Source: a virus
Length of the DNA stretch: 64,000 nt
Direction: 5' to 3' (one strand)
Virus record (IMG/VR): IMGVR_UViG_3300032093_000060
Span: 1 to 64,000 of that record
Positions within the stretch are counted from its first letter, which is position 1; every line of letters starts with the position of its first letter. The translations under genes and the position numbers were made by a program. The notes beneath the pieces are model-generated. The model was not told the DNA's origin. It worked only from the letters and a program-made list of their open reading frames with translations, and searched no databases. This document shows positions 26,301 through 63,999 of the stretch, piece after piece.

Positions 26301-26742
26301 CTTGAGTTATTGTTCTATATGTGTCACCTAAAAAATTTGTATTTCTGTTAAGCATAGTTTCATTATCCCTTAATGGGTGAAACTCTCTTTTTCCATACTC
26401 TTGAAGATCAGCATATCTATCATAAAATGTTCCATTTGGGCCCGCATCATATGAATATACTTTTGACCACTCATTATTATCTTGAAACCCTTGATTAAAA
26501 CTTCTTAAGTACTCTCTCTTAGCAGCTACATCATCTTGATGGTTATAACTACCTGGATTTGGAGGTGGTACTTGAGAAGGTAATAATCCAGGGGATTTAC
26601 CAGTTACTCTTTTCTGAACTTGTATTGGATCAGGTAATGGATCTGTAATATTAAGACTTGAGACAATAGGTTTTACATCAGGCTTTTGATAAAGACTATT
26701 TACACTATTTTCAAAACTGTTTTCAAAACTATTTTCCCCCAT
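20329..26742 (-). CDS. Giant virion cargo protein with PD-(D/E)xK nuclease domain
   Basis: 2137 aa. N-terminal Gly/Ala-rich helices with EGLQESVQ, coiled coils, then GAMDLIAID..KIIDIKTG...QLSLY at ~21580-21735. Confidence 0.72.
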   Translation of the reverse strand: MGENSFENSFENSVNSLYQKPDVKPIVSSLNITDPLPDPIQVQKRVTGKSPGLLPSQVPPPNPGSYNHQDDVAAKREYLRSFNQGFQDNNEWSKVYSYDAGPNGTFYDRYADLQEYGKREFHPLRDNETMLNRNTNFLGDTYRTITQAVLPMAWNGFKSSYASMSKIFNEGDFFGEDAALARDYARINAKNYSSKDNLGSFFNNLVINASYTFGIMATALLENWVGAGINALTGAKAVTTKAANLLFKEYQAGKAFDGIGTYAQKLKDLKDINAVRKEWEATNGISKFQKTITSPVGKVLNPLSNLTDNYYSLMNATDDFTGYMQSGRQLVNTAGAAYRDFRNMNLALSEARLEAGFVYNKIFDDLYSEHQIKNGRNPNDDELKDIIAQAKQGGFETSAVNAGLIYFTNKISFDNILNPRVGSQGFLKQRLVDWKTIGGGRFGELGDVVFDVAKNEWKFAEKGFKSWWNKWKTDPFHKSVWGTVGYLKANFAEGLQESVQETISFANEKYYKDTFYTTPVRKNLISKASFFGKLFGEGSTPTSYYGEGLANQFSKEGASVFLSGFAMGSVAGGLNKTMSFLYEKANQIFDPKGYEEYKLGKNKIVKELVDNMNAFGVEELVNSRLFNGGVQDILSKVQQSGNKKETMDAETEALSQHMMMLHDYGVLDLYLDAVDSYKDMTNAEFKEAFPQIADEDVSKYKGRIDTVVKKAKGISEKLQFYDKVYPNPIDLTKYNKDDDDYEEAYIMHHAWNWGVKSAVFYNEVFDDVRERMVGVMDKHYEQRPLKNMTKRESDVILRPEEMYNEVGLLKNEANNLLAVGDPESKKMAKEKLNQAAAFEKYYIAYQEFSDYYSRDRSYPQIKAMLQSQKAEGETVTEEEVNEFIEDRFGPKNEQIEARILNNLESEYKNLLKTFASKSNDPLFNNQVEDSFELVLDFYKLNDESRAMVDVINVMNDPQGFLDVYYRNEKWMTDLWLKRGDYYRDIVKEELSNIEDNGLLNYLANQGIFMSSSDFIRFRDEGVPPAEFYDEKRQLVIPEGSLAYDRYMAVLDKYQDLKEFEGMMREEAKNAELQIRIAQLIERRDKQLEKLKSQFEENLVATTGQTVEEWEEMEPSTTEGKTAEEIKAEIDDLIGLQKQVELAKTPEELNELYEALAEQNLIPENWAEIKDKAIADNTKEAKKFLKTLSKEDYSDEERLRAVEMKFGLNQIFNDKIAELNTIEPVEESETVRPIETTDAWKDYQKQIETTNRRYDALVKKLKDQITESTEDTPPRPQAPSKKTTSDEVDLNAPWNELPDDLRAELQIAFDEYLTSPAPQGLGKPKDLERVNPEQYNLLRNNWLEKPEQKQMIKAYNERPMDLESALPNIKFLPLKKPITEYGLTRIRLMRDELENILRKNNYNDKPLTAEQSRNIKNDIKELGKYLNYLRLNTKPKSKYQQVFRIFEEMVVNKQGGVTRVLDAEGNTIGYEFPGVDGRPMRVTKLTEEIDNKINQKEAYLYAAIKEPGVDAKTGKPQGQLISIFRAIKEDDAIASDAERVNLFIQALESELKNNKLKQLKSQRKINKIKKALDNRFTEDTLVAVVKDIAHDESTIAGNTVDAMTRVAFTLDKNGKFMRPEKPAKMSQQAYDNLFGDRGIVTELQDAAIDGEFDIISQDVILYDPTLLESGLVGAMDLIAIDKKGNLKIIDIKTGKPENWASFNDENNPYSKKFAYRLQLSLYRALIFNMTGQLANNISILPVELTTDMDGNILSAESAAKKLNLPVIRELNNKILALKKATAPNTEEIEALEKRVKNLEKATTMPLTPIDDNVLAENGVIMKAPALPENLKPENIDETPSIPVLTEAQKQAEIKKLKKQIADQDKKLAALPNGGVITVGSMVTYSPEYEKIMARKKTLETKLSALETTETNVNEEDELSEEERKALLAGKSGITFDIESISVEEFVKLIDAIKSAKDLAELEKAYTDAIFAISAETSIEATDMIENVYFMRKKALNIDTSEENINVGDYLISKNPIFGITENEIVVVKKKADGKVTVNQVQNIQNGKPRQKTFTDAQIKSSFTKTTEEALKVEEEVMEPTLEEKENSTISKSSIKDFADNPELINQAKQNASTMSKKDRLAALKNKSKEDNINKCKPK

Positions 26743-29700
26743 ATTGTCTTCTTGTTTGATTTACAGAAATTTGATTTTGCATAGCAAAATTATTAAAATA
26801 AGCATCTCTATGTGCTCTAAGATTAACTCCCATGTTTGATAAATTGTCTATATCTTTATCAAAGACAACCTTTCCTTTATTAGGATCATATGAAGCAAAA
26901 ACTGATTCTACAACAATATTTCCTCCATTACCCATTTTATAATTAACTGAATAACCAGGAAGTCTAGGATCAGTATAAGTTACACCTTCACCACCAGCTC
27001 TTTCAATGTTTATCATTTCACGTGACTTGAAAGAGTTTTTAAACATTGTAAGATTTGATAAATTATTTGCATCTGTAATAATTGTAATACCATTTTTAAG
27101 TACATCATTATATACATCTTTATTCATTAATCCTACTCCTTTTTCATCTTGTTTAAATTTCTTTAAATATTCTTCTGGTAGTCTAAATTGAATTGCAGCT
27201 TTACCCATATCTTGTCCAGCTATAGGAGATGTAACAACTTGAAATGATTTTAATACGTCATTTTTCTTATTCGTTCTTTGTTTTAAATCTGCCCATATTC
27301 CATTCCATATTTCATTATTTTCTTTAGGATCTTCAATACCTTTATCTTTACCCATTGGAAGAAAAGATTTATTTACACCCTCAAAAGAAATATAAGTACT
27401 ACCGTCATCTCTTCCAGTATCTAAGTTTCTAAGGGTTTTTGCAACTTCTAAGTAATGCTGATATGTAGGTGAAAAAACTCCTGGTTGAATAGTAATTCCA
27501 GCACCATTAGCAGTATATAAACCTGTCCCTTGTTTTTCAAATCCAAGAAACTGACCAACAGCACTATTTTTAAATTGGCCATATAAACCAATTGATGATT
27601 CACCAACTGGATTATTTAATACAGCTAGTGGACTTTTTAGTCTACTATCCTCTACCATACTTTCATAGTCATCTTGCATTGCTTGATATTCTTCTGCAAC
27701 ATTTCTGTGATGTCCTGTCCAAGAATATGAAGCTCTATCAAGTTCAACATCATCACTATCTCCAAACAAACTATTATAACCCAATTCTAAAAGTCCAGTC
27801 CCTACATATGATCCAGCAGCTATAAGACCACCTGCTGCAGCACCAACGGGAATAGTTATTTCAGCAAATGGACCTCCAAGTACTCCAGTAGCAGCACCAG
27901 CTGTACCACCACCAAGAATTGCATTTACAAGACCACCCCATGACATACCATCCTGTGTACTCACTTCATCCGGATGTTCCATGGCTACTTTTGCTTTGAA
28001 TTCTTCTTTTGAACGAGGATTATAATCTTCATCAAAAAGATACTCTGCATACTGAAAACCATCTGCTTTCATATTAGCAATTACTTCTTTAGCATGATTT
28101 TTTTTATCTTGCTTATATGCTTTTAAGTAACCACTATAGTCATTCAAATCATGACCTAAAGAAATCATTTTTGCTACTGTTCCACTGTTTCTAATGTTAG
28201 GATTATCTTTTTTCTTAGCAATTATGTTATTCATTCTTTGAGTAAGAGAAATAATTTGCTCTGGTTTTAAAGAACTAAAGTCTCCTTTTTTAAGTTGAGC
28301 TTGAATCTTTTTTCTTTCATCACCCTGTATTTTAGTATTTGCATCTTTAAGAGTTTTAGCAATGGTTGGATCCTGAACTAATATCTTTGAAAAAGCACCT
28401 TTACCTATACCTAACATTTCTTCAACAGGTTTAGCTTTCCCCTTTATACTGTTATCTCCAAATATATAATTCATATCTTCTTTACTTAGAACTCCTTCTT
28501 TTTCAAATTCATCTAGTAAAGCTGTGATTGTTGTTGAAGCCGCAGCTGCATCTTTTTCAAACATCTTATTGACCGCACCTGCTAATTTTTTAGGATCTGT
28601 TTGACCAGTTACTGCCATCATATCGGCTACTGCTTGAACATCAGCAAGTTCTTCTTTTATTACTATTTCACCATTATCTTTTTTTGTATACAGTCCAGAA
28701 TCTAATTTAGCTTTAGTTCCGATTTTGTCTAGTTCAAGAAGGTATTTATAATAAGCTACATCTTTTTGAGCATTTGCTCTTTGCGCTATTAAAGAAGAAT
28801 CATATTGGAATTTTTGTCTTTGTACGGCAAATGGATTTGCATCATATGTTTTTTCATAGTTCATAAATGCAAAATCATTAGCTGCATTATCAAGATCTTC
28901 TTGTAGTAATGAACCAGCTTTTACTGCATCAACTCTACCTCTTAACTCTGTTAAGTCAGCTTTTGATAAATCACTACCCCCTTGACTATTTAGAGTTTTG
29001 TTCATATCACCATCTAACAGTTTCATGTCTTCTTCAGCTTTTTGTAGCAAAGTTCCAATTTGCTCATTAGCTTGTTTATATTTTTCTAATGAAGATGCAG
29101 TAGTTTCTATATCTGTACCATCTTCAATAGACTTCTCCATCTTCTCAATCATTTTATCATTTACATTTTTTTGATTAAGAAGGTAATCTCTATTCTGAAC
29201 AGTTTGATTTTTTAGTATTTTAAGATTTTCATTAATATAATCTCTCTCAGCAGCCATTGCATTTCCACCATATTTTGGTAAATCCTTGTCAGAGGCAATG
29301 GTATCTTTTCTTTTTATATATGCCAATGTTGAATAAAACTCTTTTACACGCGGATCATTCCCTAACTCAGCATAGAACACAGATTTTAATGGGGCTATTA
29401 TTTGTTCTCCATTTTGTTCAGTAACAAGCCAATCTCCTTGAGGAGTTGTGGTCTTTACTTTATACTTCATTTTTTCAGCCATCTCTCTGGCCATCTTTTC
29501 TACATTAACATATGGGGTATATTTTACATCACCGAATGAAGTAAGTTGCTCATATGGAGTATTTTTAAATTCTTCAATTCTATAATCTATGGCTCTTATT
29601 CCATCTCCCCAATACCCATTATATATATCTTCATCAGTAGAATATCTCTTGCCTTCTCCGAGTGACCTTTCAAAAGTTGCATTTTTTGTAAAGGCCATAT

Positions 29701-30022
29701 CTTTCATAAGACTACTATCTTCATAGAAAGGTCTGAATAACTGAGTAGCTTGTTGAACATTCTGGTCTAATGATAAATCTAATCCAGTAATTCTTTTCAG
29801 ATCAAAGTCCATTCTTTTAAAAGTATTATCTCTCTTCTTAATACTTTCACTATGTGTTAAAGGAGCATTTAAAAGTTGTCCATACATACTGTTAAGTCTG
29901 CTCCAGTTTTGATCATACTGAGTTTGCTTTAGCTGTAATACATTAGCTAAAAGATTTAAGTCTGGTTGAGATGCTTGGTAATCAGGTATATAATCTGTAA
30001 CTCCCTGTGGATATTGTGCCAT
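26729..30022 (-). CDS. Virion cargo/ejection protein with glycine-zipper hydrophobic hairpin
   Basis: 1097 aa. N-terminus PDLNLLANVLQLKQTQYD, hairpin GGLVNAILGGGTAGAATGVLGGPF...GAAAGGLIAAG. Overlaps the next gene by 14 nt. Confidence 0.62.
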   Translation of the reverse strand: MAQYPQGVTDYIPDYQASQPDLNLLANVLQLKQTQYDQNWSRLNSMYGQLLNAPLTHSESIKKRDNTFKRMDFDLKRITGLDLSLDQNVQQATQLFRPFYEDSSLMKDMAFTKNATFERSLGEGKRYSTDEDIYNGYWGDGIRAIDYRIEEFKNTPYEQLTSFGDVKYTPYVNVEKMAREMAEKMKYKVKTTTPQGDWLVTEQNGEQIIAPLKSVFYAELGNDPRVKEFYSTLAYIKRKDTIASDKDLPKYGGNAMAAERDYINENLKILKNQTVQNRDYLLNQKNVNDKMIEKMEKSIEDGTDIETTASSLEKYKQANEQIGTLLQKAEEDMKLLDGDMNKTLNSQGGSDLSKADLTELRGRVDAVKAGSLLQEDLDNAANDFAFMNYEKTYDANPFAVQRQKFQYDSSLIAQRANAQKDVAYYKYLLELDKIGTKAKLDSGLYTKKDNGEIVIKEELADVQAVADMMAVTGQTDPKKLAGAVNKMFEKDAAAASTTITALLDEFEKEGVLSKEDMNYIFGDNSIKGKAKPVEEMLGIGKGAFSKILVQDPTIAKTLKDANTKIQGDERKKIQAQLKKGDFSSLKPEQIISLTQRMNNIIAKKKDNPNIRNSGTVAKMISLGHDLNDYSGYLKAYKQDKKNHAKEVIANMKADGFQYAEYLFDEDYNPRSKEEFKAKVAMEHPDEVSTQDGMSWGGLVNAILGGGTAGAATGVLGGPFAEITIPVGAAAGGLIAAGSYVGTGLLELGYNSLFGDSDDVELDRASYSWTGHHRNVAEEYQAMQDDYESMVEDSRLKSPLAVLNNPVGESSIGLYGQFKNSAVGQFLGFEKQGTGLYTANGAGITIQPGVFSPTYQHYLEVAKTLRNLDTGRDDGSTYISFEGVNKSFLPMGKDKGIEDPKENNEIWNGIWADLKQRTNKKNDVLKSFQVVTSPIAGQDMGKAAIQFRLPEEYLKKFKQDEKGVGLMNKDVYNDVLKNGITIITDANNLSNLTMFKNSFKSREMINIERAGGEGVTYTDPRLPGYSVNYKMGNGGNIVVESVFASYDPNKGKVVFDKDIDNLSNMGVNLRAHRDAYFNNFAMQNQISVNQTRRQYGGK

Positions 30023-30038
30023 AATATTTTTATATTAT

Positions 30039-30082
30039 AAAACTATCAAAATTTTTTAAGTTTAATAAACTTAATAAGTTTA
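30039..30082 (-). promoter_or_regulatory. Putative promoter (TTTA-N20-TAGTTTT) with overlapping 17-bp palindrome
   Basis: TAAACTTAATAAGTTTA at 30066-30082 (8-bp arms). Same geometry as 36539-36582. Confidence 0.55.
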
Positions 30083-32686
30083 TCATAATAAAAATGGATA
30101 TATATTACTAGCTAAAACATAGCCACCATTTGCCATTCTTTGTCCTCCATACATACCTTTATTTAATCTAGCTTCTTTATAAGCCATATCAAATGCTTTG
30201 TCATAGTCACCAGTTTTTCCAGCATAGTATGTAATTCTATCTTCTAAAGATGAACCACCTGCACCAGTGAAAGGTTTTTCCATTCCTGTGTTATAAACAA
30301 ATTCATTTTCATAATCTCCTGCAAATTGTGGTGTTCTTGTATTTATCTGTTGTATTGCAGCCATTCTATCAATACCAGCAATATCAGCACCCATTGTGTT
30401 ATAGAGCCATTTATTTTCATTTGCAATCTCTCTTGCTCTATCATCTTTTTGCCCTGCCAATGCTGTATTCATAATGTTTGTATTGGCAAGCATATTAGAA
30501 TTATCTATTGTAGCTTTTTGTACATTGGTTTCTCTTTGTCTATCAACATTTCTAGACTGAACACCAGCTACAGCATCCATAGAAGCTCTAAGTCCTTTAC
30601 CAAGTAGATCTTTCATCTGAGCTTGTTTAGCACCAGTAGCTCCAGCCATACCGGTCATTACTGCATTTTGTAATGCATTAACTGCAGCCTGAGCTGTATC
30701 AACTTTAGTTTGATATTCTTCATAAGCTCCTTCTACCTGTGCTCTTGGTGTAAGTACTACATTTGAACGAGGAACTTTTGTTTTCATTAATGCATTCCTA
30801 GCAATATCCAATCTTGATCTTTTACTTAAATGTGGTCTGTCCATACCACCACCTGATACTTCTCCTCTAGCCCCACCTTCACATACACACTCTTCTTCTT
30901 TTTCAATTGGAAATTCTTTTACTTCTCCAGTATTAGGGTCAACACATCTGCAATATAAATCATCTGGAGTATCAGGACAATCTGAACATTTTCCAGTAAC
31001 TGGATCTTTAGTTCTTACAATAGGTTTACCAGTTGCATCAACCATTGCTTTACCTGTATTAGGATCTATACAAGGTTCACAATCTTGAGTAGGATCTTCA
31101 TCATCCTTAAACACTGCCTCTTTTTTCTCAAATTTTTTATTTGCTGCTTCAATACAATTTTTATATCGTGGATTAGCAGAAAGTTTAGCTACACCTGCTT
31201 CAAGAGCTTCTTCATAACCCTCATCACCTGGTCTTTTACCTTTTAAATAAGCCGGAAAAACTTCTAGTACTGCTTGTTTTACGTCACCAGATTGTTGTAT
31301 TTTTTTACAGACACCTTGAGCCACACTCTCTTCTGTTCCACCACCGCTACCAGTATAATATTTTACTGCTTGTCCTTTACCTCTTGTTGTTCTATACCAA
31401 CCTTGCGCATTCTTACCAGTAGTTCCTACAGGAGTTCCTGATACCCAACCAGCATCAGTAGGTGCTGCTGTAGTTCTTGTTGCTGGAATATTATTTACAG
31501 TAACAGTAGTTCCAGTACCTGTTCCATTACCATTACCTGTTCCATTACCATTACCTGTTCCATTACCATTACCTGTTCCATTACCATTACCTGTTCCATT
31601 ACCATTACCTGTTCCATTACCATTAACTTGACTATTGTCAGTACCTGCAAACTTAGGAACACCTCCATAAGCCATTTGATCAGGATAATATGGAAAATCA
31701 TATCCACCCATCTGCATACCATACATAGCATATGGCATACCACCATACTGCATCATACCTTCTTGTGGAGGCATCATACCTTGCTCAGGCATCATATCAG
31801 GAGGAGGCATAGAACCTTGCATTTGTGCTGTATCAGTAGGTCTAGCTATAGCTTCTCCACTTGGCATTTGCTCAGGATATGCTGGAGCTTCTTGTGGTTG
31901 TTGAAGCATTTGTTGTTGAGCCATCATTGCTTGCTCAGGATTTGCTTGTTGCATTTCTTGAGCCATCATTGGATTTTGTTCTTGTGGCATTTGTTGACCA
32001 CCCGGTGTTTGTCCTTGAGCTAATGCAGTTTCTAAAGCTTCTGCTTGTTCTTTTAGTTCAGGTATTAAATCCTCTTCATTAATTTGATTAGCTTCCATAT
32101 AAGGTTTAGCCATAGCGGGAACACCTTGAGGAAATCCTTTCATAGATTCTTGTACAAGAGCAAGAGCACCCAACTTCATGATATAGTTCTTAATCATAAT
32201 AGTTGCAGTATTTCTTTCTAACTTACCACTATCTGGATCAAGAAGTATTGATTTGTATTTACTTATATCATAAGGTTTAGCTAATTCAGCTGGAGTATAT
32301 CCTCCTTTCTTTGGTGTTTTATTAAACATTGCTAATACAGCAGGATCATTTATTCTTAATGATGCTGTATCACTAAAGATAAATGTATCATCCGGGAGGT
32401 TCAAAGGAGTTCCCCCTTCAAAATGTCTTTTACCTTTTATCTTTAAATGATCTGGAATTGTTTGACCTGTGATAGGACCAAAGGCTGTTTCTCCACGTTC
32501 TGCCTCTAGATTTGCTTCATCTCTTGAAACCTCATCCACTGTACTTTTTACTCCTTTGTAAGCTTTGCTATCCATAGCTTTATAATCAGCACCTCCAAAG
32601 GCACCAGGTTGTAATGATAATGAACCATCAACCTGCTTACCATAAGCAGCTTTACCCAAAGGCATTTTTGTAATTTGAACTCTCAT
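30083..32686 (-). CDS. Virion structural/cargo protein with low-complexity Q/M/P and GN-repeat regions
   Basis: 867 aa. N-terminal ANLEAERGETAF...GKRHFEGGTPL domain resembles crAss-like cargo proteins. Several xxGG motifs and a small Cys cluster. Confidence 0.6.
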   Translation of the reverse strand: MRVQITKMPLGKAAYGKQVDGSLSLQPGAFGGADYKAMDSKAYKGVKSTVDEVSRDEANLEAERGETAFGPITGQTIPDHLKIKGKRHFEGGTPLNLPDDTFIFSDTASLRINDPAVLAMFNKTPKKGGYTPAELAKPYDISKYKSILLDPDSGKLERNTATIMIKNYIMKLGALALVQESMKGFPQGVPAMAKPYMEANQINEEDLIPELKEQAEALETALAQGQTPGGQQMPQEQNPMMAQEMQQANPEQAMMAQQQMLQQPQEAPAYPEQMPSGEAIARPTDTAQMQGSMPPPDMMPEQGMMPPQEGMMQYGGMPYAMYGMQMGGYDFPYYPDQMAYGGVPKFAGTDNSQVNGNGTGNGNGTGNGNGTGNGNGTGNGNGTGNGNGTGTGTTVTVNNIPATRTTAAPTDAGWVSGTPVGTTGKNAQGWYRTTRGKGQAVKYYTGSGGGTEESVAQGVCKKIQQSGDVKQAVLEVFPAYLKGKRPGDEGYEEALEAGVAKLSANPRYKNCIEAANKKFEKKEAVFKDDEDPTQDCEPCIDPNTGKAMVDATGKPIVRTKDPVTGKCSDCPDTPDDLYCRCVDPNTGEVKEFPIEKEEECVCEGGARGEVSGGGMDRPHLSKRSRLDIARNALMKTKVPRSNVVLTPRAQVEGAYEEYQTKVDTAQAAVNALQNAVMTGMAGATGAKQAQMKDLLGKGLRASMDAVAGVQSRNVDRQRETNVQKATIDNSNMLANTNIMNTALAGQKDDRAREIANENKWLYNTMGADIAGIDRMAAIQQINTRTPQFAGDYENEFVYNTGMEKPFTGAGGSSLEDRITYYAGKTGDYDKAFDMAYKEARLNKGMYGGQRMANGGYVLASNIYPFLL
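31517..31624. repeat. Perfect 18-bp tandem repeat x6 (encodes NGNGTG)
   Basis: ACCTGTTCCATTACCATT repeated six times without mismatch. Confidence 0.95.
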
Positions 32687-32693
32687 GTGTTAG

Positions 32694-35600
32694 TTATAAA
32701 AATTTTATTTGTCCACCAGCAGCTAATATTTTTCCTATCTCTTCTTGAGTAAGATCATATACTCCACCTTTTTTATATTTTAATTCACCACCTTCTTTAG
32801 TAAATGCATCAGTACCAACAACTCTATTAAAGCCAGTGCTTCCACGTCCTTGACCCTTAGAACCAATTCTTTGATCAAGACCACTATAACCTCCACGAGT
32901 AGGAGTATAAGTTATTACATCTCTATTATCTGATCCAGTAAGTTCATTTAAATAATTCTCATCATAGATATTCTCCATTGTTTGTCCAATACCTTGAGCA
33001 GCATAACCAGCAGCTGCACCTAAATTAGCAACACCCGTGAGATTTAATGTTCTTGCTTTATTGATATCATACTCAGCTGTAAAGTCTTGTGGAGTATTTG
33101 AATCTACATAAGCTTCATTATAACAAGGATCTCCAGGTTTTGCATTCTTTACAGCTTCTTCTGTACAAGGACCTACACCACCTGTAGCAATACTTGTATT
33201 GTTAGGATCAAAAGGACCTACACCACTAAACTGTCCACCTGGATCGAATGTTGGCATATAACCACCAAATTGTTTTTTCTCTTGCGTGTTATAATATCCT
33301 TCAACTTCTGACGGAGATTTTTGACCTGGTATCATTTTACTTTGTCTATCATACCAATTATTATCATTATCCCTTACTGTTTTTACTTGACCTTGATTTT
33401 GATAATCTTCAGAAGCAGTATAACCAGCACCTAAGAATTGAGCATCTTCTTTAGAAACAGGATTTATTGCATTATAGAAATCCTGTGGATTTGTATAATT
33501 AGTAATACTTCCTTCCATAGGTACATACTCTTCTTCATTTCTTGCTGCTCTTCTATCCCATCTCTCTATTCTTCTATCCAATCTTGCGTCTCTTCTAGAA
33601 TCTTTATCATTTGATCTAGTATCAGAATCTGACTTAGGTTCATTTAATGCATTTGCTTGCATTGGTTGTTCCTTGTATGGTTCATTAGAAAGGAAAGGAG
33701 CTCCTGTATATTGTTTGTTTGATCCATAACCATATGTGCTTGGATTATTTGGATCTATATAATTACCTTTAATAGTCATCTTATGACTAAATGGTTTATC
33801 AACTCTCTCATAGTCATAATAGTATCCTGCTTGATTTGGTTGACCTTTACCAGATGAACCAAAATTTTCCATAATTGCACCTTTGCCATCACTTATCTGA
33901 ACTCCATTTCTCCAAACTGATCCATCTGCTCTTACTTCATCACCTACTTGAAATCCTCCAGAAGTATTTGGTTGACCTTGTCCTTGAGGTGCACCTGTTC
34001 CGGTTCCTTGTCCTTGTGGTTGGAACATCTGACCTTGAGCATTCATAATAGGACCTCTTTGACTCATCCATTCAAAGTCATAGTTTCTTCCTGTTTGAGG
34101 ATTTCTTTTAAAAATACCAAAGGTATCTCTGATTTCTTCAAGTAACCCTTTTGGTTGAACAGGATATTGATAACCACCACGATAACCACCACCAGAAGGT
34201 CTTGTAGTTACATTAGGTTTATAGCCACCTTGGTTTTGACCTGTTGCATAGATTTTTGTATTATCATATGTAGCATTTGGATCTAAAGTACCCGATGATT
34301 TTAAATATTCAAAGGCAGCTTTATTCTGTTGCTCTGATAAATTTGGATTAAATCTTTGAAAAGCAGGACTTTGGTATTGTGGATTTGTGTTACCTTTTAC
34401 ATCACCAGTAACTGTCCATCCATCAGCAGCTTTAACTAAACCTCCTCTTCTGTAATATGGATCTGTAGTATCTTTAGTACTAATATCATTATTATCATAG
34501 TATACTATAGGAGATATATTCATTTCATTACCATTTCCTCCAGAAACAAACTTTTGTAGATTACCAAATTGATCTGGTTGAACTCCTGTAGCTGCTCCAC
34601 CAAACTGTTGTTTTTTTAGTTTTGCAAATTGTTCTGGATAGTTAGTTCTAAAATATTCATCACCACCTATATTTTGGTATGACTCTCTATTTTTATCGTA
34701 CTCATATTGTAACCAATCATCTGGACTATACCAGCCTTGAACTTCTGCATCCGCTTCCCAAACATCTGAACCAGGTTTTTGATATCCTTCTCCAAATACT
34801 TTATCAGGATGTTTAAGTCTAGCAGCTACTTCAGCATCTACTTGAGTTGGTTGCCAATTTTCATCTCCCATACTTAGTATAGGATATTCAGATTGTGTTT
34901 GATAGTACTGACCCGTTTTAGGATCTTTAAAATAAAACATTCCTGACTGGTAATTTTCAGGATCTTGTAAAATATTAAAATCATATTGAGTACCATAAGC
35001 TTTATTTTCAGGATCTAAAATATTTTCTCTAAATGATGGAACATATTCATCTGTACTTGTATCCGTTGTGACATTAACATCTGTACCTTGAGGGTTTGGA
35101 TTTTCTAAATAATCCGCAATACCATTACCATTACTATCTGCATTAAAACCTTCATAACCAGGACCATAAGATCCTGTTGTTGGATTATTTTTTAATCCTG
35201 GTGAAGTTTTTCCAGGATCAGCAACAGCATTAACATTAGATGCTTTTCTTCTTACTATTTCTCCAGGGTATGTACTGTGTGTACTCCAAGAAGATCCATA
35301 ACTAGAGCCATATGCTGCTGGCATATAACCATATCCCGGCATCACACCTCTTCCTCTTCCTGCCCCCATCATTCCTGATAACATAGCAGCAGGAATTCCT
35401 TTAGCTGACCATTCTCTTTTTCCTGACCACCATGGACCTTTTTTATATTGTACATCTATAAATGGACCTTGAGGAGCTTGACCACTTCCTTGTTGTCCTT
35501 GTGGTGCTTGTACTATCTGAGGTGAAATAAATTGCAAGTAATCTGGTAAACCAGAAACACCAGAATATCCAGCAGCCATATCTCCAAACATTCTGTTCCA

Positions 35601-36538: not shown

Positions 36539-36582
36539 TAATATAATAAAATTTAGTTTAACAAATAAACATAATAAGTTTA
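36539..36582 (-). promoter_or_regulatory. Putative promoter (TTTA-N20-TATATTA) with overlapping 17-bp near-palindrome
   Basis: TAAACATAATAAGTTTA at 36566-36582, 16/17 identical to 30066-30082. TATATTA at 36539-36545. Confidence 0.6.
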
Positions 36583-49277: not shown

Positions 49278-49278
49278 A

Positions 49279-54571: not shown

Positions 54572-54586
54572 AGTGATATCTATTTA

Positions 54587-56846: not shown

Positions 56847-56865
56847 AGTTGTTGGTTTTTATAGT

Positions 56866-57405: not shown

Positions 57406-57415
57406 ATTCTTTATA

Positions 57416-57455: not shown

Positions 57456-57476
57456 ATGAGTTTATATCTACTAAAA

Positions 57477-58889
57477 TTAGATTACCGGACTAGTTACAGC
57501 AGGTAGTGGCACATTAGGTGTAGATGCTGCACAAGCTACTCCAAGAGGAATGCTGTCAACAATACAACTAGATTCACAACTTGTTAACCAAGCAACTAAC
57601 TGATTGTAGATGGTAGTACCAATTGCACCCAAAGTTCCATTAAGAGCTGGGTTAGCTGGAGTAATGATCTCAATTAAATACTGATCATTATCAAACGTTC
57701 CAGTTGGATTGTAAAGTCTAGGAACATTATGCTGAATGAAAATTCTATCATAGTAAGCATTTCTAGACAAACCAGCAGCTTGATACAAGTCATATCCTTG
57801 AGTAATTTCTCGGATACGTAGATCAGTTGCAAGATGGTTTTGTCTGTATGCTTCAGAAAGAACTACATCTCTTACTACAGTTTCTCCAATACCATTTGAT
57901 TGGCGACCATAACATTGTACACCAACACAAAGTGATTGGAATTCACAAGGTGAACCTGTGTAATCTACTTCAGAAGCATAGATTCTTACTGGCTCTAATT
58001 CATAGAAATCAGAAACTTGGAACGTACAGTTACCAAATTTAGTTTCTACATAAGCTCCATTAAGAACTAAACCAGCACACTCACCAGCTTGATATCCAAG
58101 ATCTGGATCTGCAGGAGTACCGAAAGTACTATAGTGTAAATAACTTACACCAGGAATTACAGGTAAAGAAGTTAATACAACTTCTTCTGGATAGTAATAT
58201 TTCCAGTTTAAACCATTATCGTTAGTAAATGTAACAATAGGATACGCAAATTGATTTAATAATACATTTTGTCTTAATTGTTGAGCCCATGCAATAAATA
58301 CTCTACGTGGATCTACTGGAGTTGGAGTAGCAAGTGGAGTTACAGGACAACATCCAGTGTAAGCTTCAAGAGTCTCATATCCATTGTGGTTCAAAGTTCT
58401 AAGAACTGGAGAACCTTTAACATCAATGCGTAAGTAATAAGTCTCACCACATAAGAATTGCTTACAACAAGTACCAGCAGTTTCTCCTGGTTCAGAAGAA
58501 GAAGGTGGGTTAAGTAAGTTCCATGGAGTTACACCAACGTTCAAAATATAGTTTTGTGGAGCATTTGCAGGAACTGCATACATTCTACTAGCATATCTAG
58601 ATTTGATAGTCTTACTTTTGTTAGACTCTAAGTATCCTCCAGCGAAAGGACCAATTTTGTCATTTGCCATTAAAGATCCAGTTGCAATAATTACTTCACA
58701 ACAAGAAGGATCTAATGGAGATGGACTGTTAAGAACAGGTCTTACTGTAAATGTATTAGGGTCAATCCAAGTAAGTTGCCCTGCAGTAAGCATGTTTGCT
58801 GTAGATGTACCTAACTGTACACCACTAAGCGGAGAAATACCCTGGGTTGCCACCATGGTCTTTCTATAAGCGTGATTAAAATAAGCCAT
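57477..58889 (-). CDS. Abundant structural protein (possibly auxiliary capsid/decoration)
   Basis: 470 aa, with its own promoter-like element and terminator. CGETYYLRIDVKG and PTGTFDNDQY motifs. Confidence 0.55.
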   Translation of the reverse strand: MAYFNHAYRKTMVATQGISPLSGVQLGTSTANMLTAGQLTWIDPNTFTVRPVLNSPSPLDPSCCEVIIATGSLMANDKIGPFAGGYLESNKSKTIKSRYASRMYAVPANAPQNYILNVGVTPWNLLNPPSSSEPGETAGTCCKQFLCGETYYLRIDVKGSPVLRTLNHNGYETLEAYTGCCPVTPLATPTPVDPRRVFIAWAQQLRQNVLLNQFAYPIVTFTNDNGLNWKYYYPEEVVLTSLPVIPGVSYLHYSTFGTPADPDLGYQAGECAGLVLNGAYVETKFGNCTFQVSDFYELEPVRIYASEVDYTGSPCEFQSLCVGVQCYGRQSNGIGETVVRDVVLSEAYRQNHLATDLRIREITQGYDLYQAAGLSRNAYYDRIFIQHNVPRLYNPTGTFDNDQYLIEIITPANPALNGTLGAIGTTIYNQLVAWLTSCESSCIVDSIPLGVACAASTPNVPLPAVTSPVI

Positions 58890-58919
58890 TTGTTTTTGTT
58901 TTAGTTAATAAATATACTA

Positions 58920-58950
58920 TAATATAGTAAAAAGTTTTTTAATCTCCAAA
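58920..58950 (-). promoter_or_regulatory. Putative promoter TTTG-N20-TATATTA
   Basis: On the + strand, CAAA at 58947-58950 and TAATATA at 58920-58926. Confidence 0.65.
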
Positions 58951-59469
58951 TTATTTTAAGAAAAGTAATTTATACTTAGCTGAGTTAAGCGCATCCTTTA
59001 CCAAGTCTAAGTTATTTACTATTTCTGAGTAAGGCAACATGCCTTGTAACTTGTTAATCATTCCATAAATATCTCTGATGTAACCAACTGCATCAGCTGT
59101 TGTATCTAGAGTTCTTGGTGGTACCTCTTTATATGAAAGTAATTTCTCAGCAGCTCCCTGATATCCTTCTATAAGAGTATCTGCAAAATCTGGTATTGCA
59201 TCATAAAGATTATTCAAAGCTTTATGTGCAGCATATGATCCTTCACCTTTTACCTTTAAGTGCAGTTTATGAAAGCTTGTTCTTGCATTCATTAATTCAC
59301 TAGCACATGCAGCAACCATTGTATCTAATGAACTACCACCTACACCAGTATCTGGAGTTGGTTGTGGTTTTGCAGGTTCACTTTTTGGTTGAGTTACTGT
59401 TACCTGTGGTCTACTAATTGTTTTAGTAGGTTCAGGATTTCTTTTTAAAAGTCTTGATTTTGCTTCCAT
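58951..59469 (-). CDS. Ferritin/Dps-like four-helix protein (DUF5856-like)
   Basis: 172 aa. HKLHLKVKG..SYAAHKAL..LYD....AD.LIEGYQG, C-terminal KYKL.FL. Confidence 0.78.
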   Translation of the reverse strand: MEAKSRLLKRNPEPTKTISRPQVTVTQPKSEPAKPQPTPDTGVGGSSLDTMVAACASELMNARTSFHKLHLKVKGEGSYAAHKALNNLYDAIPDFADTLIEGYQGAAEKLLSYKEVPPRTLDTTADAVGYIRDIYGMINKLQGMLPYSEIVNNLDLVKDALNSAKYKLLFLK

Positions 59470-59471
59470 TA

Positions 59472-60170: not shown

Positions 60171-60173
60171 GTC

Positions 60174-60740
60174 TTATTTTTTTCTTTTTACAGGACCACC
60201 TTTTTTACTCTTGGTCTTTTGAACATTCATATATTCTTCATATGCTCCTTGTATGGGTGGATAAACAATTGGTGCATTAGCTCTACTCTTTAGTAGTTTT
60301 TTTACGTCCATGTTACGTTCTTCACTAGGTGCATACATTCTTGGACCTCTACCATTAGACATTGGGTCATTATTTAATGCTGCAGCATTAGCAAAAATAG
60401 ATTGTGCTTCAGTCATAGGTCCCATTTGTATACCATTGTCAGCTCTTTTTAATGACTTTTTAAACATATCCATTTCCCCACCAGCTTGCTTAATAGCTTT
60501 TTCTTTATTATCATTAAAGAATTTAAGTGGATTTACTTTTGTATCTCTAGACATTCTAGAAACTACATCTCCCTTTTTATTAGTTCTAGTTTTCTCAATG
60601 TGTTTTCCACCACTTGGCATTTTAAAAACCTCCTTGGACATTTTACTGCCAAATAAACCGGCTCTTTCAATAAGTTTTCCTTGAACTTCTTTACCATCAA
60701 ATTCTCTAGATATTGATGAAACTTTTCTACCCTTTCCCAT
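60174..60740 (-). CDS. Small basic hypothetical protein
   Basis: 188 aa, K/M-rich, ends SKKGGPVKRKK. Operon spacing of a few nt. Confidence 0.7.
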   Translation of the reverse strand: MGKGRKVSSISREFDGKEVQGKLIERAGLFGSKMSKEVFKMPSGGKHIEKTRTNKKGDVVSRMSRDTKVNPLKFFNDNKEKAIKQAGGEMDMFKKSLKRADNGIQMGPMTEAQSIFANAAALNNDPMSNGRGPRMYAPSEERNMDVKKLLKSRANAPIVYPPIQGAYEEYMNVQKTKSKKGGPVKRKK

Positions 60741-60745
60741 AATTA

Positions 60746-61126
60746 TTATTTTTTACGCATTTTACTTAATGTAATAGCAAGTCTTGCTCTTTGCCCAAGC
60801 TTACCACCCTTCTTTGCCGCAGCTTGTAGTTTGGCTTTAGGAATTTTCTCACCTTTTTTAACACCAAGAGATTCTCTTAATGCCCCAGGTTTTTTAATAG
60901 CTCCTTTTATCCAACCACCTTTTTTAGCACTAAAAAGTTTAGGCTCTGGTTTTTCAGGTTCCATATTTATCGTAGGTTTATTAGCACCTCTTAAAACTCC
61001 TTTAAGTGTTCTTGTTTCTTTAACACTTTCAGGTTCACCATATCTTTTTTTAACTACTGTTTTGTAGTTACCATCTGGAGAGTAAAACTTTTGTTTTGCT
61101 TCTCTTGGATTTTTTTTATTAGGCAT
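60746..61126 (-). CDS. Small basic phage protein
   Basis: 126 aa. C-domain WIKGAIKKPGALRESLGVKKGEKIP...RARLA.TL, preceded by AKKGG. Confidence 0.75.
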   Translation of the reverse strand: MPNKKNPREAKQKFYSPDGNYKTVVKKRYGEPESVKETRTLKGVLRGANKPTINMEPEKPEPKLFSAKKGGWIKGAIKKPGALRESLGVKKGEKIPKAKLQAAAKKGGKLGQRARLAITLSKMRKK

Positions 61127-61130
61127 GACT

Positions 61131-61169
61131 TTACTTTTTTACTTTACCTTTATTTCTACAACTACACAT
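61131..61169 (-). CDS. 12-aa micro-ORF MCSCRNKGKVKK (not in ORF track)
   Basis: ATG is 2 nt after the upstream stop and TAA is 4 nt before the downstream ATG, so it fills the gap. Confidence 0.55.
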   Translation of the reverse strand: MCSCRNKGKVKK

Positions 61170-61171
61170 AA

Positions 61172-61354
61172 CTATTTCTTTTTACCTGCTCTTTTTTTAG
61201 CTCCAGCTATTCTATCAGCAGCAGTTGGTTTAGGATTATTATCAATACCAGCTATTACTGAAAGTAAACCAAATTTACTTTTAGCACCACCTTCTTTGTA
61301 TTTACCTTGGATCATTGCTTTAGGCATTGCCTTTTTAGTCATCATCTTTTTCAT
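61172..61354 (-). CDS. Small basic protein (60 aa; start revised to MKKMMTKK)
   Basis: The track start at 61399 overlaps the upstream gene. The ATG at 61354 lies 14 nt after the upstream stop. Confidence 0.7.
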   Translation of the reverse strand: MKKMMTKKAMPKAMIQGKYKEGGAKSKFGLLSVIAGIDNNPKPTAADRIAGAKKRAGKKK

Positions 61355-61368
61355 ATCTATTGATTTAA

Positions 61369-61617
61369 TTATCCTCCATATAATGGTCTTGTACCGCAAC
61401 CCCCACTAGCTAATCTAACTAGCCCTGGAGCACAACTGTGTTTAACTTTATCAACCATACCACCAGCTTTCATAACCATTGGATTAGTTGTAGCATTATA
61501 TCCAGGCATAGTTTTAGTCATATAAGCTTGACCACCCGCAGCCATTTTTATTTTTTTTACAGGACCACCAGCTTTCATTTTGCCGCATCCCATTTTACAA
61601 GTCTTCATAGTTTTCAT
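61369..61617 (-). CDS. Small basic protein with three MxAGG motifs, ending in GG
   Basis: 82 aa: MKAGG, MAAGG, MKAGG, ...LYGG*. Confidence 0.75.
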   Translation of the reverse strand: MKTMKTCKMGCGKMKAGGPVKKIKMAAGGQAYMTKTMPGYNATTNPMVMKAGGMVDKVKHSCAPGLVRLASGGCGTRPLYGG

Positions 61618-61633
61618 AATAATATATAATAAT

Positions 61634-61915
61634 TTAACAATTCCATTTTCTCAAGGACTTGTTAATCCTTGAATCAGGATCATTAGCTGTCTTTGAGCTT
61701 GTTAGTTTTTTCTTCATACCAGACATTCTTGCACAGAAAGACTTTCTTCTATTAGCATCTTTACTTCCAGCTTTTAGTTTAGATGGTTTAGTAGTCACAG
61801 CTGTCTTAAGTTTACTACCAGGATTAGCTGCTCTATAACTAGCTACTCCTTTAGCATTAAGACCTCCTTCTGGATTCTTACCCTCTTTTCTTTGCCATGC
61901 TGGTGACTTTGCCAT
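61634..61915 (-). CDS. Small basic phage protein (DUF6321-like)
   Basis: AWQRKEGKNPEGGLNAKG...RRKSFCARM...SRINKSLRKWNC. Confidence 0.75.
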   Translation of the reverse strand: MAKSPAWQRKEGKNPEGGLNAKGVASYRAANPGSKLKTAVTTKPSKLKAGSKDANRRKSFCARMSGMKKKLTSSKTANDPDSRINKSLRKWNC

Positions 61916-62334
61916 TATTTTTTCTTTGTCTTTAATGTACCACCTTTTTTATAAGTACCAAAAGACGGTCCGGAAAGAGGTTGAAAATTTTTCTTTTCTC
62001 TTCTTGCACTCTTTCTTAATAATCTTTTTTCCTCTCTTATATCTGCTTTTGCATTAGCTTTTTCAGTTGTTTTTTCACTATTTGCAATTTTAGCTGCTAC
62101 ACCAATTGCAGTTCCACCAGCAATTGCCCCTAGAATATTTTTCAATGGGGATGTTGGTTTAGCATAATTAGTTGTATTACATGGATAACAATTAGGTATT
62201 GTACCACATTGACCTGCAGGACAATCTGTTTTAACTGATGTTCCTGTCTTAGCTTTTTTTAAAGCTTTAGGTTTTTTACCAGCTTTCTTCATTGAGATAG
62301 CTATTGCTGCTTGTTGTGCTTTACTTCCTGCCAT
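61915..62334 (-). CDS. Small basic hypothetical protein
   Basis: 139 aa. QQAAIAISMKKAGKKPK, a four-Cys cluster, a hydrophobic helix, YKKGG. Confidence 0.7.
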   Translation of the reverse strand: MAGSKAQQAAIAISMKKAGKKPKALKKAKTGTSVKTDCPAGQCGTIPNCYPCNTTNYAKPTSPLKNILGAIAGGTAIGVAAKIANSEKTTEKANAKADIREEKRLLRKSARREKKNFQPLSGPSFGTYKKGGTLKTKKK

Positions 62335-62560
62335 TTTTTTTCTTTTTAGGATAAGGATTTTCCTTGTGCCATTTTTTAGTTGCTGCTATACCTTGTTTAA
62401 TAGTTTTTGCTCCTGCTTTCTGTGTTAAGTTAATTGTGTCCCATTTACCTTTATCTTTTGTGGGATGATTAACCATTATATCACCAGGTTTACCTTTTCC
62501 TATTTTATTAGTTTTTTTGTAAATCCTATGTTTTTCACCATCAGCAGTAACTCTTGCCAT
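62321..62560 (-). CDS. Small basic hypothetical protein
   Basis: 79 aa, K-rich. Overlaps the next start. Confidence 0.7.
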   Translation of the reverse strand: MARVTADGEKHRIYKKTNKIGKGKPGDIMVNHPTKDKGKWDTINLTQKAGAKTIKQGIAATKKWHKENPYPKKKKNGRK

Positions 62561-62562
62561 GA

Positions 62563-62802
62563 TTAAATCTTTTTGCCAGCAGCAATGCTATTAAACTCTT
62601 TAGCTTTTTCTGCTGCCATCTTTTTTACATCTGCCATTAACTTTGCATTCTTCTGAATCTCAGAAGCTCTCTGTAATGTAGACATAGCAGATTCAATTTC
62701 CCATTTTCTCATGTCTGCTTTGCTACCACCTAAAATAGAAATACCAAGTGAAGAGGATTTCTTAGCTGGTGTTGATTTTGTTGTTGTTTTCTTAATTGCC
62801 AT
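62563..62802 (-). CDS. Small basic hypothetical protein
   Basis: 79 aa, KWEIESAMSTLQRA helix. 2-nt gaps on both sides. Confidence 0.7.
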   Translation of the reverse strand: MAIKKTTTKSTPAKKSSSLGISILGGSKADMRKWEIESAMSTLQRASEIQKNAKLMADVKKMAAEKAKEFNSIAAGKKI

Positions 62803-62804
62803 AA

Positions 62805-63143
62805 CTATACTTTTTTAACTCTATTTCCCATTCCTACTCTTGACTTCTCAGCTTTCTTAGCAGCTAGTTTAGAAGGAGTTAGTTCATACTTTGTTTTTGG
62901 AGTCTTACTAGAGACTCTTTTTGTAGGCCGGCAGTATTCATTTTTACCACCGGCACCACAAGCTTTTCCTGATTTAGTATCTTGCCATTTCTCTGCTTGC
63001 CATCTTTTTAACTCTGCACCCTTTTCAGTCTTTCTTACTTGCCCTTTACCTTTGCGGCATTTGGCAATAGCTTGAGAAGCTCTTGCTGAAGGGAACACGG
63101 CATACCGTGCTTTTACACTATGATAGCATGCATCCTTTGCCAT
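62805..63143 (-). CDS. Small basic phage protein (DUF5872-like)
   Basis: KDACYHSVKARY.VFPSA.AS...KCR, LKRW..EKW.D, YCRPTKRVSSKTPKT. Confidence 0.72.
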   Translation of the reverse strand: MAKDACYHSVKARYAVFPSARASQAIAKCRKGKGQVRKTEKGAELKRWQAEKWQDTKSGKACGAGGKNEYCRPTKRVSSKTPKTKYELTPSKLAAKKAEKSRVGMGNRVKKV

Positions 63144-63145
63144 GA

Positions 63146-63481
63146 TTATGGGTTTGCTTTTTTAGGAGCTTTGGATTTACCACCAACTCTACCTTTAGCT
63201 TTTTTAGATGCAGAAATTTTTGCGTTAGTTCCAGACTTAACACCTTTAGAACCAGGAGTATTGTCTACAATAGCTTTAGCATTAGAGTTTACTACTCCAC
63301 CAGTTTTCATCATAGAAGCTTTCATAACTTTTCCATACATGGCTTTAGGTTTAGCTCCACCTTTCATAAAAGTACTATTAGTTCTACCTTCTACAGCAGC
63401 TGAAGATTTTTGATAAGATTTATTATCCATTAATGCTTTTTCTGCATTACTCATTTTAGGGTTTTTAGGTCTATTCATCAT
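63146..63481 (-). CDS. Small basic hypothetical protein
   Basis: 111 aa, K/M/G-rich. MKGG and MKTGG. Confidence 0.7.
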   Translation of the reverse strand: MMNRPKNPKMSNAEKALMDNKSYQKSSAAVEGRTNSTFMKGGAKPKAMYGKVMKASMMKTGGVVNSNAKAIVDNTPGSKGVKSGTNAKISASKKAKGRVGGKSKAPKKANP

Positions 63482-63501
63482 TTTATTTAATTTTATATAA
63501 A

Positions 63502-63999
63502 TTATTTTTTTCTTTTAATAGTAGAATCTTTACGCATTTTTCTAACTGAACCTCCTCTTCTCATTGCTGGAACTGGTTCATCAAACTTTATTTTTCCTGA
63601 TAACTCATCTTGAACATTTTGTTCCATTTCTTTTCTAAATAGTTCATTATCAGTTGCAGCTTTATTTGATTTAACAGTATTTCTATTGACAGAACCAGAC
63701 TTTAACTTTTTCATCAAAGCAATATTAGAACTTGCTGTACCATCAGTTAATCCTTGCTTTTTAGCTTCAGACCAACTAGTTCCAGTTTTTTCTTGCCACA
63801 ACTGTGATAGAGTTGGTTCAGAATTTTTTCTTGGAGTTACAACAACTTCAGGCTTAATTGTTTCTTTTCTAATCTCTGGTCTTTTTAAAGATTCAATTTT
63901 AGATTTTACTTTTTTAGGTTCTTCTTTTTTAGAATCTCCAATTTTTTTAACTAAAGTTTTAAAATCAGGATTTGCTTCAAGTTTACCAGTCTTAGTGTT
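63502..63999 (-). CDS. Basic hypothetical protein (5' truncated by window edge)
   Basis: Frame is open to the window end (NTKTGKLEANPDF...TLSQLWQEKTG...). MRRGG near the C-terminus. Confidence 0.65.
   Translation of the reverse strand, partial: NTKTGKLEANPDFKTLVKKIGDSKKEEPKKVKSKIESLKRPEIRKETIKPEVVVTPRKNSEPTLSQLWQEKTGTSWSEAKKQGLTDGTASSNIALMKKLKSGSVNRNTVKSNKAATDNELFRKEMEQNVQDELSGKIKFDEPVPAMRRGGSVRKMRKDSTIKRKK

Follow-up and report, generated by a model that had tools for sequence, protein, structure and literature searches.

The 89.8-kb phage contig IMGVR_UViG_3300032093_000060, of which bases 1-64000 were analyzed here (the window), encodes several large cargo proteins and a cassette of small Lys-rich proteins in which a short peptide ending in Gly-Gly (GG) recurs. 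This peptide, [M/Y/F/L]-[K/Q/A]-x-G-G-[S/A/T/V], is a real, specific, conserved and family-wide short linear motif, and it is confined to presumed internal proteins. Its enrichment, conservation, fixed positions and restriction to these proteins are direct observations. The cargo proteins and the small Lys-rich proteins are probably carried inside the particle. As to function, we favor, at a nearly even chance, the reading that the motif works uncut, as a docking or connector element that marks boundaries; any binding and the absence of cutting are what we infer.

By protein matches to muzzle, ring and capsid, the phage, which comes from lake water, is crAss-like. A protein of 1848 amino acids (aa) matches the crassvirus muzzle protein (PF25731, E 5e-33), two crass ring proteins are encoded upstream of its gene, and an open reading frame (ORF) of 538 aa just past the window end (genome positions 65511-67127) matches the crass capsid protein (PF23898). 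All genes of the finding are on the minus strand. The muzzle gene is followed by the genes for protein A (2383 aa, 36580-43731), protein B (1275 aa, 32694-36521), a C1-like protein (867 aa, 30083-32686; C1 below) and a 1097-aa protein in the C2 position (26729-30022), and then by genes for giants of 2137, 3747 and 2546 aa. The cassette of 11 small Lys-rich ORFs (60-296 aa) spans 60174-64000; its last ORF runs to 64392, past the window, and 9 of the 11 contain GG.

An earlier note on this DNA had described a recurrent x-x-x-G-G motif, and every string that it listed is found in minus-strand ORFs of the window, including AQDGM, AAEGM, AAYGK and the strings of the small proteins. A carries LKKGG (aa 34-38), FDNGG, the group LQFGG, YVKGG and MDEGG (aa 309-349), and KKFGG (aa 2353-2357). 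In B, the basic leader MKKIKVRISK is followed by FLYGG, EKKGG, QQFGG, YRRGG, KQFGG, TKEGG, YKKGG and LAAGG, the last of which was missing from the earlier list. C1 has a leader ending in GAFGG (aa 28-32), then MQYGG, MQMGG and MAYGG in a Met/Gln/Pro-rich linker, and GMYGG and MANGG near its end. The 1097-aa protein ends in RQYGGK (nucleotides 26735-26749). As written, the motif fits any GG, and GG itself is at expectation: A, B and C1 together have 53, vs 51.4 expected from 1000 shuffles within 20-residue blocks, which keep local composition, and none of the four cargo proteins taken singly is enriched. What is enriched is the refined context. The pattern [MYFL]..GG occurs 18 times in A, B and C1 (8.07 expected; reached by 1 of 1000 shuffles) and 10 times in the 11 small basic proteins (1.61 expected; 0 of 1000). 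Likewise, [KR][KR]GG is found 5 times in each set, vs 0.50 and 0.67 expected, respectively, and [QKA][FY]GG is found 7 times in A, B and C1 (0.87 expected) and 0 times in the small proteins (0.12 expected). These refined patterns were chosen after inspection of the data; their test is in the relatives, where they hold.

The register is specific. M.GG and M...GG are at expectation in the window proteins, and [MLI].GG is seen 8 times in the cargo (6.8-7.4 expected, p 0.36-0.47) and 4 times in the small proteins (1.4 expected, p about 0.05; 10 small proteins entered the register and A-x-x-G tests). The variants A-x-x-G-(M/K/R), which the earlier note had also listed, show no enrichment (9 seen in the cargo against 5.3-5.7 expected, and 2 in the small proteins against 3.2). 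The 1097-aa protein also has to be removed from the carriers, having 2 [MYFL]..GG sites vs 1.8 expected, and the three giants show no excess (5 vs 4.6). The remark that the motif is not obvious in tail and ring proteins stands, as 12 tail, ring and outer proteins have 7 sites vs 5.17 expected, a count reached by 260 of 1000 shuffles.

Two trivial sources of the pattern were considered and rejected. A DNA-level signal, such as a Shine-Dalgarno-like AAGGAGG within K-K-G-G, is ruled out by mixed Gly codon use: the GG codons of the motif (GGT 20, GGA 12, GGG 2) are used as in the genome overall, and the mixture of GGT and GGA shows that selection acts on the protein. Relic start codons of fused genes, as a source of internal M-x-x-G-G, are ruled out since 0 of 316 small basic proteins of relatives start with the motif. 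BLASTP among the virion proteins of the window, run for internal repeats, gave one weak low-complexity match (E 0.011).

Relatives were collected with the 470-aa neighbor of the cassette, which found 261 related places, of which the best 80 loci (40-70% identity) were kept. These yielded 466 small basic proteins, or 316 after crude de-duplication (>50% shared 5-mers). The cassette recurs at the same place in relatives, with the number and mix of genes varying. In the 316 proteins, GG is found 647 times vs 327 expected, M..GG 189 vs 17.8 and KKGG 111 vs 12.1, and M.GG only 28 vs 17.5; these counts include some x-K-C-G-G sites that are the second Cys of C-x-x-C pairs (possible zinc knuckles). 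The logo of 607 sites reads K-[M 30%/K/Y]-K(44%)-K(30%)-G-G-[S/A/T]-[K/V/T]-K. At 312 strict sites, the residue after GG is S, A, T or V in 66%, vs a background of 28%, K is depleted 7-fold (2.6% vs 19.4%), and P is at half of background (8 of 312, p 0.08). The hydrophobic residue at -3, K at -2 and -1 and the small residue at +1 are selected, which supports a specific recognition element. GG is absent from 82 of the 316 proteins and reaches 10 sites in others. Sites are most frequent at a distance of 6 residues from the C-terminus (13, where about 3 per offset are expected), and 26 of 169 site-to-site spacings are 8-9 residues. GG forms the exact C-terminus in 4 of the 316, all of the kind of the 82-aa protein described below, vs 1 of 548 other proteins.

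Cargo orthologues were obtained from a profile search with C1, which gave 44 loci, and were evaluated with local-composition shuffles; 3 of the 44 (L096, L097 and L104) fell outside the orthologue groups and proved to be B-C1 fusions missed by the C1 pattern. [MYFL]..GG is found 90 times in A orthologues (37.8 expected, z 9.3), 166 times in B orthologues (57.2 expected) and 86 times in C1 orthologues (39.8 expected), the last of which also have 72 [KQA][FYKM]GG sites vs 8.9 expected. Orthologues of the 1097-aa protein are at expectation (18 vs 18.4, z -0.1); one of them has zero GG in 1019 aa. Orthologues of the 2137-aa giant (L082-L127) are depleted (16 vs 36.8, z -3.5), with GG itself at expectation. 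In a 100%-complete relative the carrier pattern repeats, with 4, 5 and 3 sites in A, B and C1 vs about 1 expected in each. Across the relatives, z values are 29-41 in small proteins and 7-23 in cargo, values that overstate the evidence because the sequences are related and hence not independent. Literature searches turned up no account of the motif and no paper linking Crassvirales cargo to a Gly-Gly motif or to proteolytic processing.

The sites also hold fixed positions. The 38-residue N-terminal leader of A ends in LKKGG (43618-43632), and in 12 of 25 A orthologues the first GG is at residue 15-26; in 25 of 27 the distance from the last GG to the end is 6-7 or 23-29 residues. For B orthologues this distance is 5-7 residues in 22 of 27. 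C1 orthologues have the first GG at residue 14-37 in all 26 distinct N-termini (21 at 28-31) and the last GG 12-18 residues from the end in 28 of 28. No position rule was seen in 1097-aa orthologues, of which 2 of 26 have a GG end like RQYGGK. In an alignment of 20 B sequences with a mean column identity of 19%, GG is kept in 17 at EKKGG, 12 at QQFGG, 11 at YRRGG, 18 at KQFGG, 19 at TKEGG and 20 at LAAGG; GGs without the context are kept in 1-2 of 20.

A and B have a C-terminal module of about 30 aa in common, which consists of GG, a short strand, an acidic LT-x-EEI helix, G-G/Y and a final strand. Its GG columns are at least 90% conserved among 12 sequences, and it was found only by direct alignment. 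In A the module lies at 36583-36702, with KKFGG at nucleotides 36661-36675, and an internal copy, at 42685-42822, was recognized by alignment with the A and B C-termini of 5 relatives. In B it lies at 32697-32816 and comprises TKEGG, YKKGG, a helix, and LAAGG with the last five residues.

The earlier description of the sites as often disordered or near termini holds for many of them. An AlphaFold2 (AF2) model of the first 240 residues of C1 has a confident domain at about aa 45-220, with a predicted local distance difference test (pLDDT) score of about 75-94, and a leader, residues 1-40 with GAFGG, at about 41. In an AF2 model of a B orthologue, 8 of 9 GG sites are in blocks with pLDDT of 58 or less. 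GAFGG (32591-32605) directly precedes the C1 domain; its G31 is invariant and its G32 at least 90% conserved in 25 orthologues. The listed GGs are not all sites of one kind, however, because HFEGG of C1 is invariant and inside the fold, and PKKGG, which sits in a fold loop, does not persist as GG among distant orthologues.

The folded domain of C1 (about aa 45-220, 32027-32554) has as its best structural match the portal-bound domain of gp45, cargo protein C1 of phage crAss001, known from the virion structure of Bayfield et al. 2023 (PMC10172136; PDB 7QOG and 4 further entries). In VIA-align, chain M of 7QOG was the top row of 281 chains (Z 5.0, below the safe level of the tool; root-mean-square deviation 3.8 A over 97 of 126 residues; 20% identity), with the next row at Z 4.1, and model residues 38-188 were paired with residues 431-548 of the chain. 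Foldseek gave no match at E <=0.001 for the domain, with gp45 at rank 6 (E 2.2). By sequence, the match to gp45 was not significant (BLASTP E 0.88; hhalign E 0.031, probability 1.6%), a profile of 6 orthologues searched against PDB did not find gp45, and no Pfam family matched C1 at E <=0.01. From synteny and the modeled fold, kinship of the two proteins is plausible. Both phages have a C1-like gene downstream of the muzzle gene and before the C2 position and polymerase giants (gp44-gp45-gp46-gp47 in crAss001). They differ in that the gp45 gene directly follows the muzzle gene, whereas here two extra cargo genes, A and B, intervene; in that the portal-bound-like domain is N-terminal in C1 but central in gp45; and in that crAss001 has no small basic cassette between portal and capsid genes.

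The motif-like sites of gp45 are arranged in a related manner. F-D-T-G-G follows a basic 20-residue leader, AYGG is found at 206-209 and 559-562, AFGG at 424-427, and there is a GG near the end. The ordered parts of gp45 are a helix, 214-245, on the tail rings and a segment, 425-552, on the portal, which were read as one chain bridging 420 A through the portal (PMC10172136). AYGG 206-209 stands just before the tail-barrel helix, and AFGG 424-427 and AYGG 559-562 bound the portal segment. Thus, in both proteins a hydrophobic-G-G directly precedes the portal-bound or portal-bound-like domain (GAFGG in C1, where the domain starts near aa 38-45; AFGG in gp45). Bayfield et al. mention neither the motif nor cleavage (PMC10172136), and none of the gp45 peptides they quote (79-101, 181-190, 275-300 and 307-320; PMC10172136) spans a GG, so that these are undecisive on cutting.

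The reading that we favor, that of an uncut docking or connector element, would work as follows. A Gly-Gly turn coming after a short strand, basic or hydrophobic, would set partner-binding pieces apart from floppy spacers. At the cargo ends, the turn would bound a basic N-terminal leader of the KVRIYK or KVRIKK type and an acidic C-terminal mini-module (G-G, hydrophobic, I/V, E). Leaders and mini-modules may pair between neighboring cargo proteins, or with portal or scaffold, giving ordered loading and, later, ordered threading out. For the small Lys-rich proteins, the same peptide could be a common handle that draws unrelated modules into the mass of cargo and DNA. A more detailed version, which we consider rather unlikely, has the cargo proteins lined up head to tail in the order of their genes: the acidic strand that follows the last GG of A, and then of B, would pair with the basic strand before the first GG of B, and then of C1, with C1 anchored on the portal and the small Lys-rich proteins joining by the same handle, so that the order of ejection would be written in the ends.

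Several observations fit such pairing. In B, C1 and some A proteins the N-terminus is a basic K-V-R-I-Y/K-K strand leading into the first GG. The family mean net charge is -2.2 for the last 7 residues of A and +3.9 for the first 10 of B, and it is -0.7 for the B tail and +3.6 for the C1 start. K at the third place of the B tail occurs with Q in the C1 leader (the window and three close relatives), and E in the B tail occurs with R or K in 17 loci, including a sister lineage. Natural B-C1 fusion ORFs are found in two related lineages, one comprising L096 (7934-13522, 1862 aa) and L097 and the other L104 (267-5405, 1712 aa). What these ORFs lack is precisely the end module of B and the leader strand of C1, and they retain a GG-x-GG linker. 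Loss of both facing end pieces is predicted by a non-covalent B-to-C1 link and is not explained by cutting at the junction. The recurrence of sites 8-9 residues apart also suits multivalent binding better than cutting. We favor the uncut reading on account of this spacing, these fusions, and the absence, described below, of a zincin of A from 5 of 5 relatives.

Other points count against it. No binding partner for the motif was found, and the small basic proteins are placed in the virion by gene position only. In the window itself the charges match weakly (A tail 0, B leader +5, B tail +1, C1 leader +2), and locus L110 has a basic B tail. By descent, the paired change amounts to about one event, as does the B-C1 fusion. 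In the AF2 model of a B orthologue, its own N- and C-terminal pieces did not pair (mean pLDDT 49.7), a result that neither supports nor refutes the reading. The reported gp45 density starts at F425 and so includes F-G-G (PMC10172136), as expected if G-G is not cut, but these limits come from the text of the paper, the deposited chain has 126 modeled residues vs 128, and the first residue is uncertain by about 2. Finally, certain signs are as expected of a cut after GG: the small +1 residue, the one family that ends exactly in GG, and fusion junctions at GG. In 76 of 221 junction contexts, many of which share one module, the GG of the fused relative ends at -2 to +5 from the position that corresponds to residue 1 of the standalone protein, vs 12.6% of random internal positions, and clear examples are the DUF6321, DUF5872 and 'TKEH' modules.

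These last signs belong to the main rival explanation, which is possible but in our estimate doubtful: a phage or host protease would cut after G-G, removing leaders and freeing modules, as in T4 internal or adenovirus core proteins. Beyond the depletion of K and P at +1, it would account for the leaders of 9-38 residues that end in GG in A, B and C1, and the paucity of the motif in 2137-aa orthologues could be avoidance of a cutting site. Fragments would also explain the two ordered gp45 parts in different compartments as well as one threaded chain does. A itself carries a match to the DUF6782 zincin-type metallopeptidase (aa 125-188, 43168-43359; Pfam 36.9 bits, cut-off 27; phrog_87), with HEFGH at aa 176, and has a second HExxH at aa 1265; self-processing of such polyvalent proteins was proposed by Iyer et al. 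2017 (PMC5512222). Yet this zincin, the only peptidase-like domain found, is absent in 5 of 5 related records that keep the motif (3 of them at least 96% complete), and the same search finds it in this genome. Many A, B and C1 orthologues keep the motif without any HExxH, and in the 100%-complete relative HExxH is missing from A, B and C1 and is found only in two giants and one 436-aa protein. The earlier suggestion that HExxH domains are the proteases is therefore weakened for A; for the two RNA-polymerase-associated giants, whose HExxH recurs in the complete relative, it is possible.

No other protease family was seen by Pfam, which was applied to 45 of the 71 ORFs and took in those above about 100 aa, or by PHROGs, which was applied to 15; cysteine proteases (including clan CE, of the Ulp1/adenain type), serine proteases and prohead proteases were all absent from the 45. 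In addition, sites 8-9 residues apart would yield tiny peptides if cut, the register differs from (M/L/I)-x-G-G, and cutting at the B-C1 fusion joint would part proteins that lack the end pieces kept by all unfused relatives. Of the earlier interpretation, a specific recognition element is supported by sites conserved at about 19% identity, and its alternatives of a protease site and a docking motif both survive, with the adenovirus-like register lost. We find it improbable that GG with an aromatic residue or Met is a passive hinge or low-complexity 'sticker', providing flexible joints or weak self-association, like beads on a string, for which no dedicated partner is needed. Many sites do lie in Met/Gln/Pro/Gly-rich linkers of low pLDDT, the N4 virion polymerase has been described as beads on a string aiding ejection (PMC13434306), and partial unfolding of cargo was proposed by Bayfield et al. 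(PMC10172136). However, a plain hinge needs no hydrophobic at -3, no K at -2 or -1, no small +1 residue and no fixed distance from termini; it leaves unexplained why these columns are conserved while other GGs drift; and the RNA-polymerase giants, which must thread out too, are without the motif. A role in DNA contact is still less probable. Here a small basic hairpin or hydrophobic wedge would bind or bend packed DNA in a protamine-like manner, and cargo would use it to sit in the DNA. The small carriers are indeed 15-25% lysine and encoded in the head module, residues after GG favor strand formers (S/T/V), and T4 internal proteins are embedded in DNA with lysine contacts (PMC3012670), but the cargo versions (Q-F-G-G, A-Y-G-G) are not basic and stand partly in acidic surroundings, the flanked segments of crAss001 bind portal and tail rings rather than DNA, and the Pfam scan of the small cassette matched no DNA-binding family. 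Least probable of all, and already contradicted, is chance arising from the composition of Gly-rich and Lys-rich proteins. It would suffice for plain GG, at expectation in A, B and C1 and in the 1097-aa protein, and for the A-x-x-G variants; it does not yield the refined counts, which locally matched shuffles reach in 0-1 of 1000 runs, nor the excess in relatives and the column-by-column conservation.

The small cassette is flanked by a conserved gene for a 337-aa protein and by a gene for a 232-aa protein. Its proteins are 15-25% Lys, with a net charge of +0.11 to +0.22 per residue, and the only Pfam families in it are DUF6321 and DUF5872. The 82-aa protein (61369-61617) carries MKAGG, MAAGG, MKAGG and LASGG and ends in PLYGG at the stop. 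It and its relatives have two Cys pairs, C-x-x-C (here C-x3-C) close to the N-terminus and another close to the C-terminus, which suggest a small zinc ribbon, and they always end in P-L-Y-G-G or R-F-G-G; in ESM Atlas, only unnamed viral clusters matched. In the 60-aa basic ORF (61172-61354), YKEGG stands directly ahead of a conserved FG-LLS-AG-DNNP module, and relatives have the same module after hydrophobic-K-x-GG. The motif scan also found a 139-aa basic protein (61915-62334) that ends in YKKGG and seven basic residues and a 111-aa basic protein (63146-63481) with FMKGG, MKTGG and GRVGG. The 139-aa ORF overlaps a 79-aa basic ORF by 14 nucleotides (62321-62334, minus strand), and a single ORF, without GG at the joint, takes the place of both in the relatives L029 and L053, so that fusion and splitting of cassette genes are frequent and not always at GG.

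Other genes were noted in passing. Adjoining the cassette in the virion module, a 172-aa protein (58951-59469, minus strand) matches DUF5856 and a PHROG annotated as 'starvation-inducible transcriptional regulator'. For the Cys-rich 470-aa protein used to collect relatives (57477-58889, minus strand), 261 relatives were found in IMG/VR contigs. Pfam and PHROG gave no match for it, and neither did tblastn against 50,697 annotated phage records; that it is the major capsid protein was considered and ruled out, the capsid being the 538-aa ORF with PF23898. The 2137-aa giant (20329-26742, minus strand) has a PD-(D/E)XK nuclease match at aa 1651-1797 (PF12705, 25.7 bits, cut-off 22), and a second such match is in a 278-aa protein (genome positions 73997-74833). 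Outside the window, a probable fibre protein of 803 aa (genome positions 79623-82034, minus strand; L088:16224-18635) combines collagen triple-helix repeats with a carbohydrate-binding module, CBM5/12.

The motif bears on how crassviruses select, package and later expel several megadaltons of protein cargo, of which the 2023 virion structure placed only fragments of one protein (PMC10172136). A short, portable and conserved peptide that marks only presumed internal proteins offers a direct experimental handle. Pairing of neighboring cargo ends would explain ordered ejection and also how one cargo protein comes to be seen on either side of the portal. Cutting at the sites would instead mean that core proteins of crass-like phages mature in an adenovirus-like way, through an unknown protease. 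Either outcome would help annotate many unnamed small basic genes of aquatic phage genomes.

Several known systems resemble the one described here in part. In phage T4, the signal of internal proteins is a single N-terminal leader, which is cut at a Leu/Ile-x-Glu site by the gp21 prohead protease. The peptide found here differs in that it has Gly-Gly as its last two residues, is present in as many as 10 copies in one protein, and is also internal and near C-termini, and no prohead protease was found among the 45 ORFs (of 71) covered by the Pfam scan. The T4 internal proteins form a diverse, fast-changing small Lys-rich set which, together with larger cargo, has one short peptide in common, and this capsid targeting sequence directs them into the scaffolding core (PMC3012670). 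Likewise, unrelated modules here have only the hydrophobic-K-K-G-G peptide in common.

The adenovirus protease has the consensus (M/L/I)-x-G-G / x-G-x-G, and pS273R of African swine fever virus (ASFV) cuts at G-G-x. The vaccinia core-protein cleavage site is A-G-x (PMC4837287). What these systems and the present one have in common is Gly-Gly with a hydrophobic residue ahead of it, both in small basic core proteins associated with DNA and in larger internal precursors. The adenovirus and ASFV analogy drawn in the earlier note nevertheless fails on register, as the hydrophobic residue here is three places before the first Gly, not two, and [MLI].GG is not enriched. A also resembles the polyvalent proteins of Iyer et al. 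2017, being a giant multi-domain protein of the virion module with a zincin match (PMC5512222). For these, metallopeptidase (MPTase) self-processing was proposed before packaging, inside the head or after injection; the paper names no cutting motif and notes the N4 polymerase as packaged unprocessed (PMC5512222). The present case differs in that the zincin is missing from relatives in which the motif persists.

Short terminal pieces that dock cargo or scaffold to the inside of an HK97-fold shell are found in encapsulin systems, as cargo-loading peptides, and in the P22 scaffolding protein, as its coat-binding C-terminal helix-turn-helix. The sequences are unrelated, and the motif of the crAss-like phage is, unlike these pieces, also internal and repeated. 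The likeness, in general terms, is that A and B too end in a short piece, the conserved mini-module of about 30 aa.

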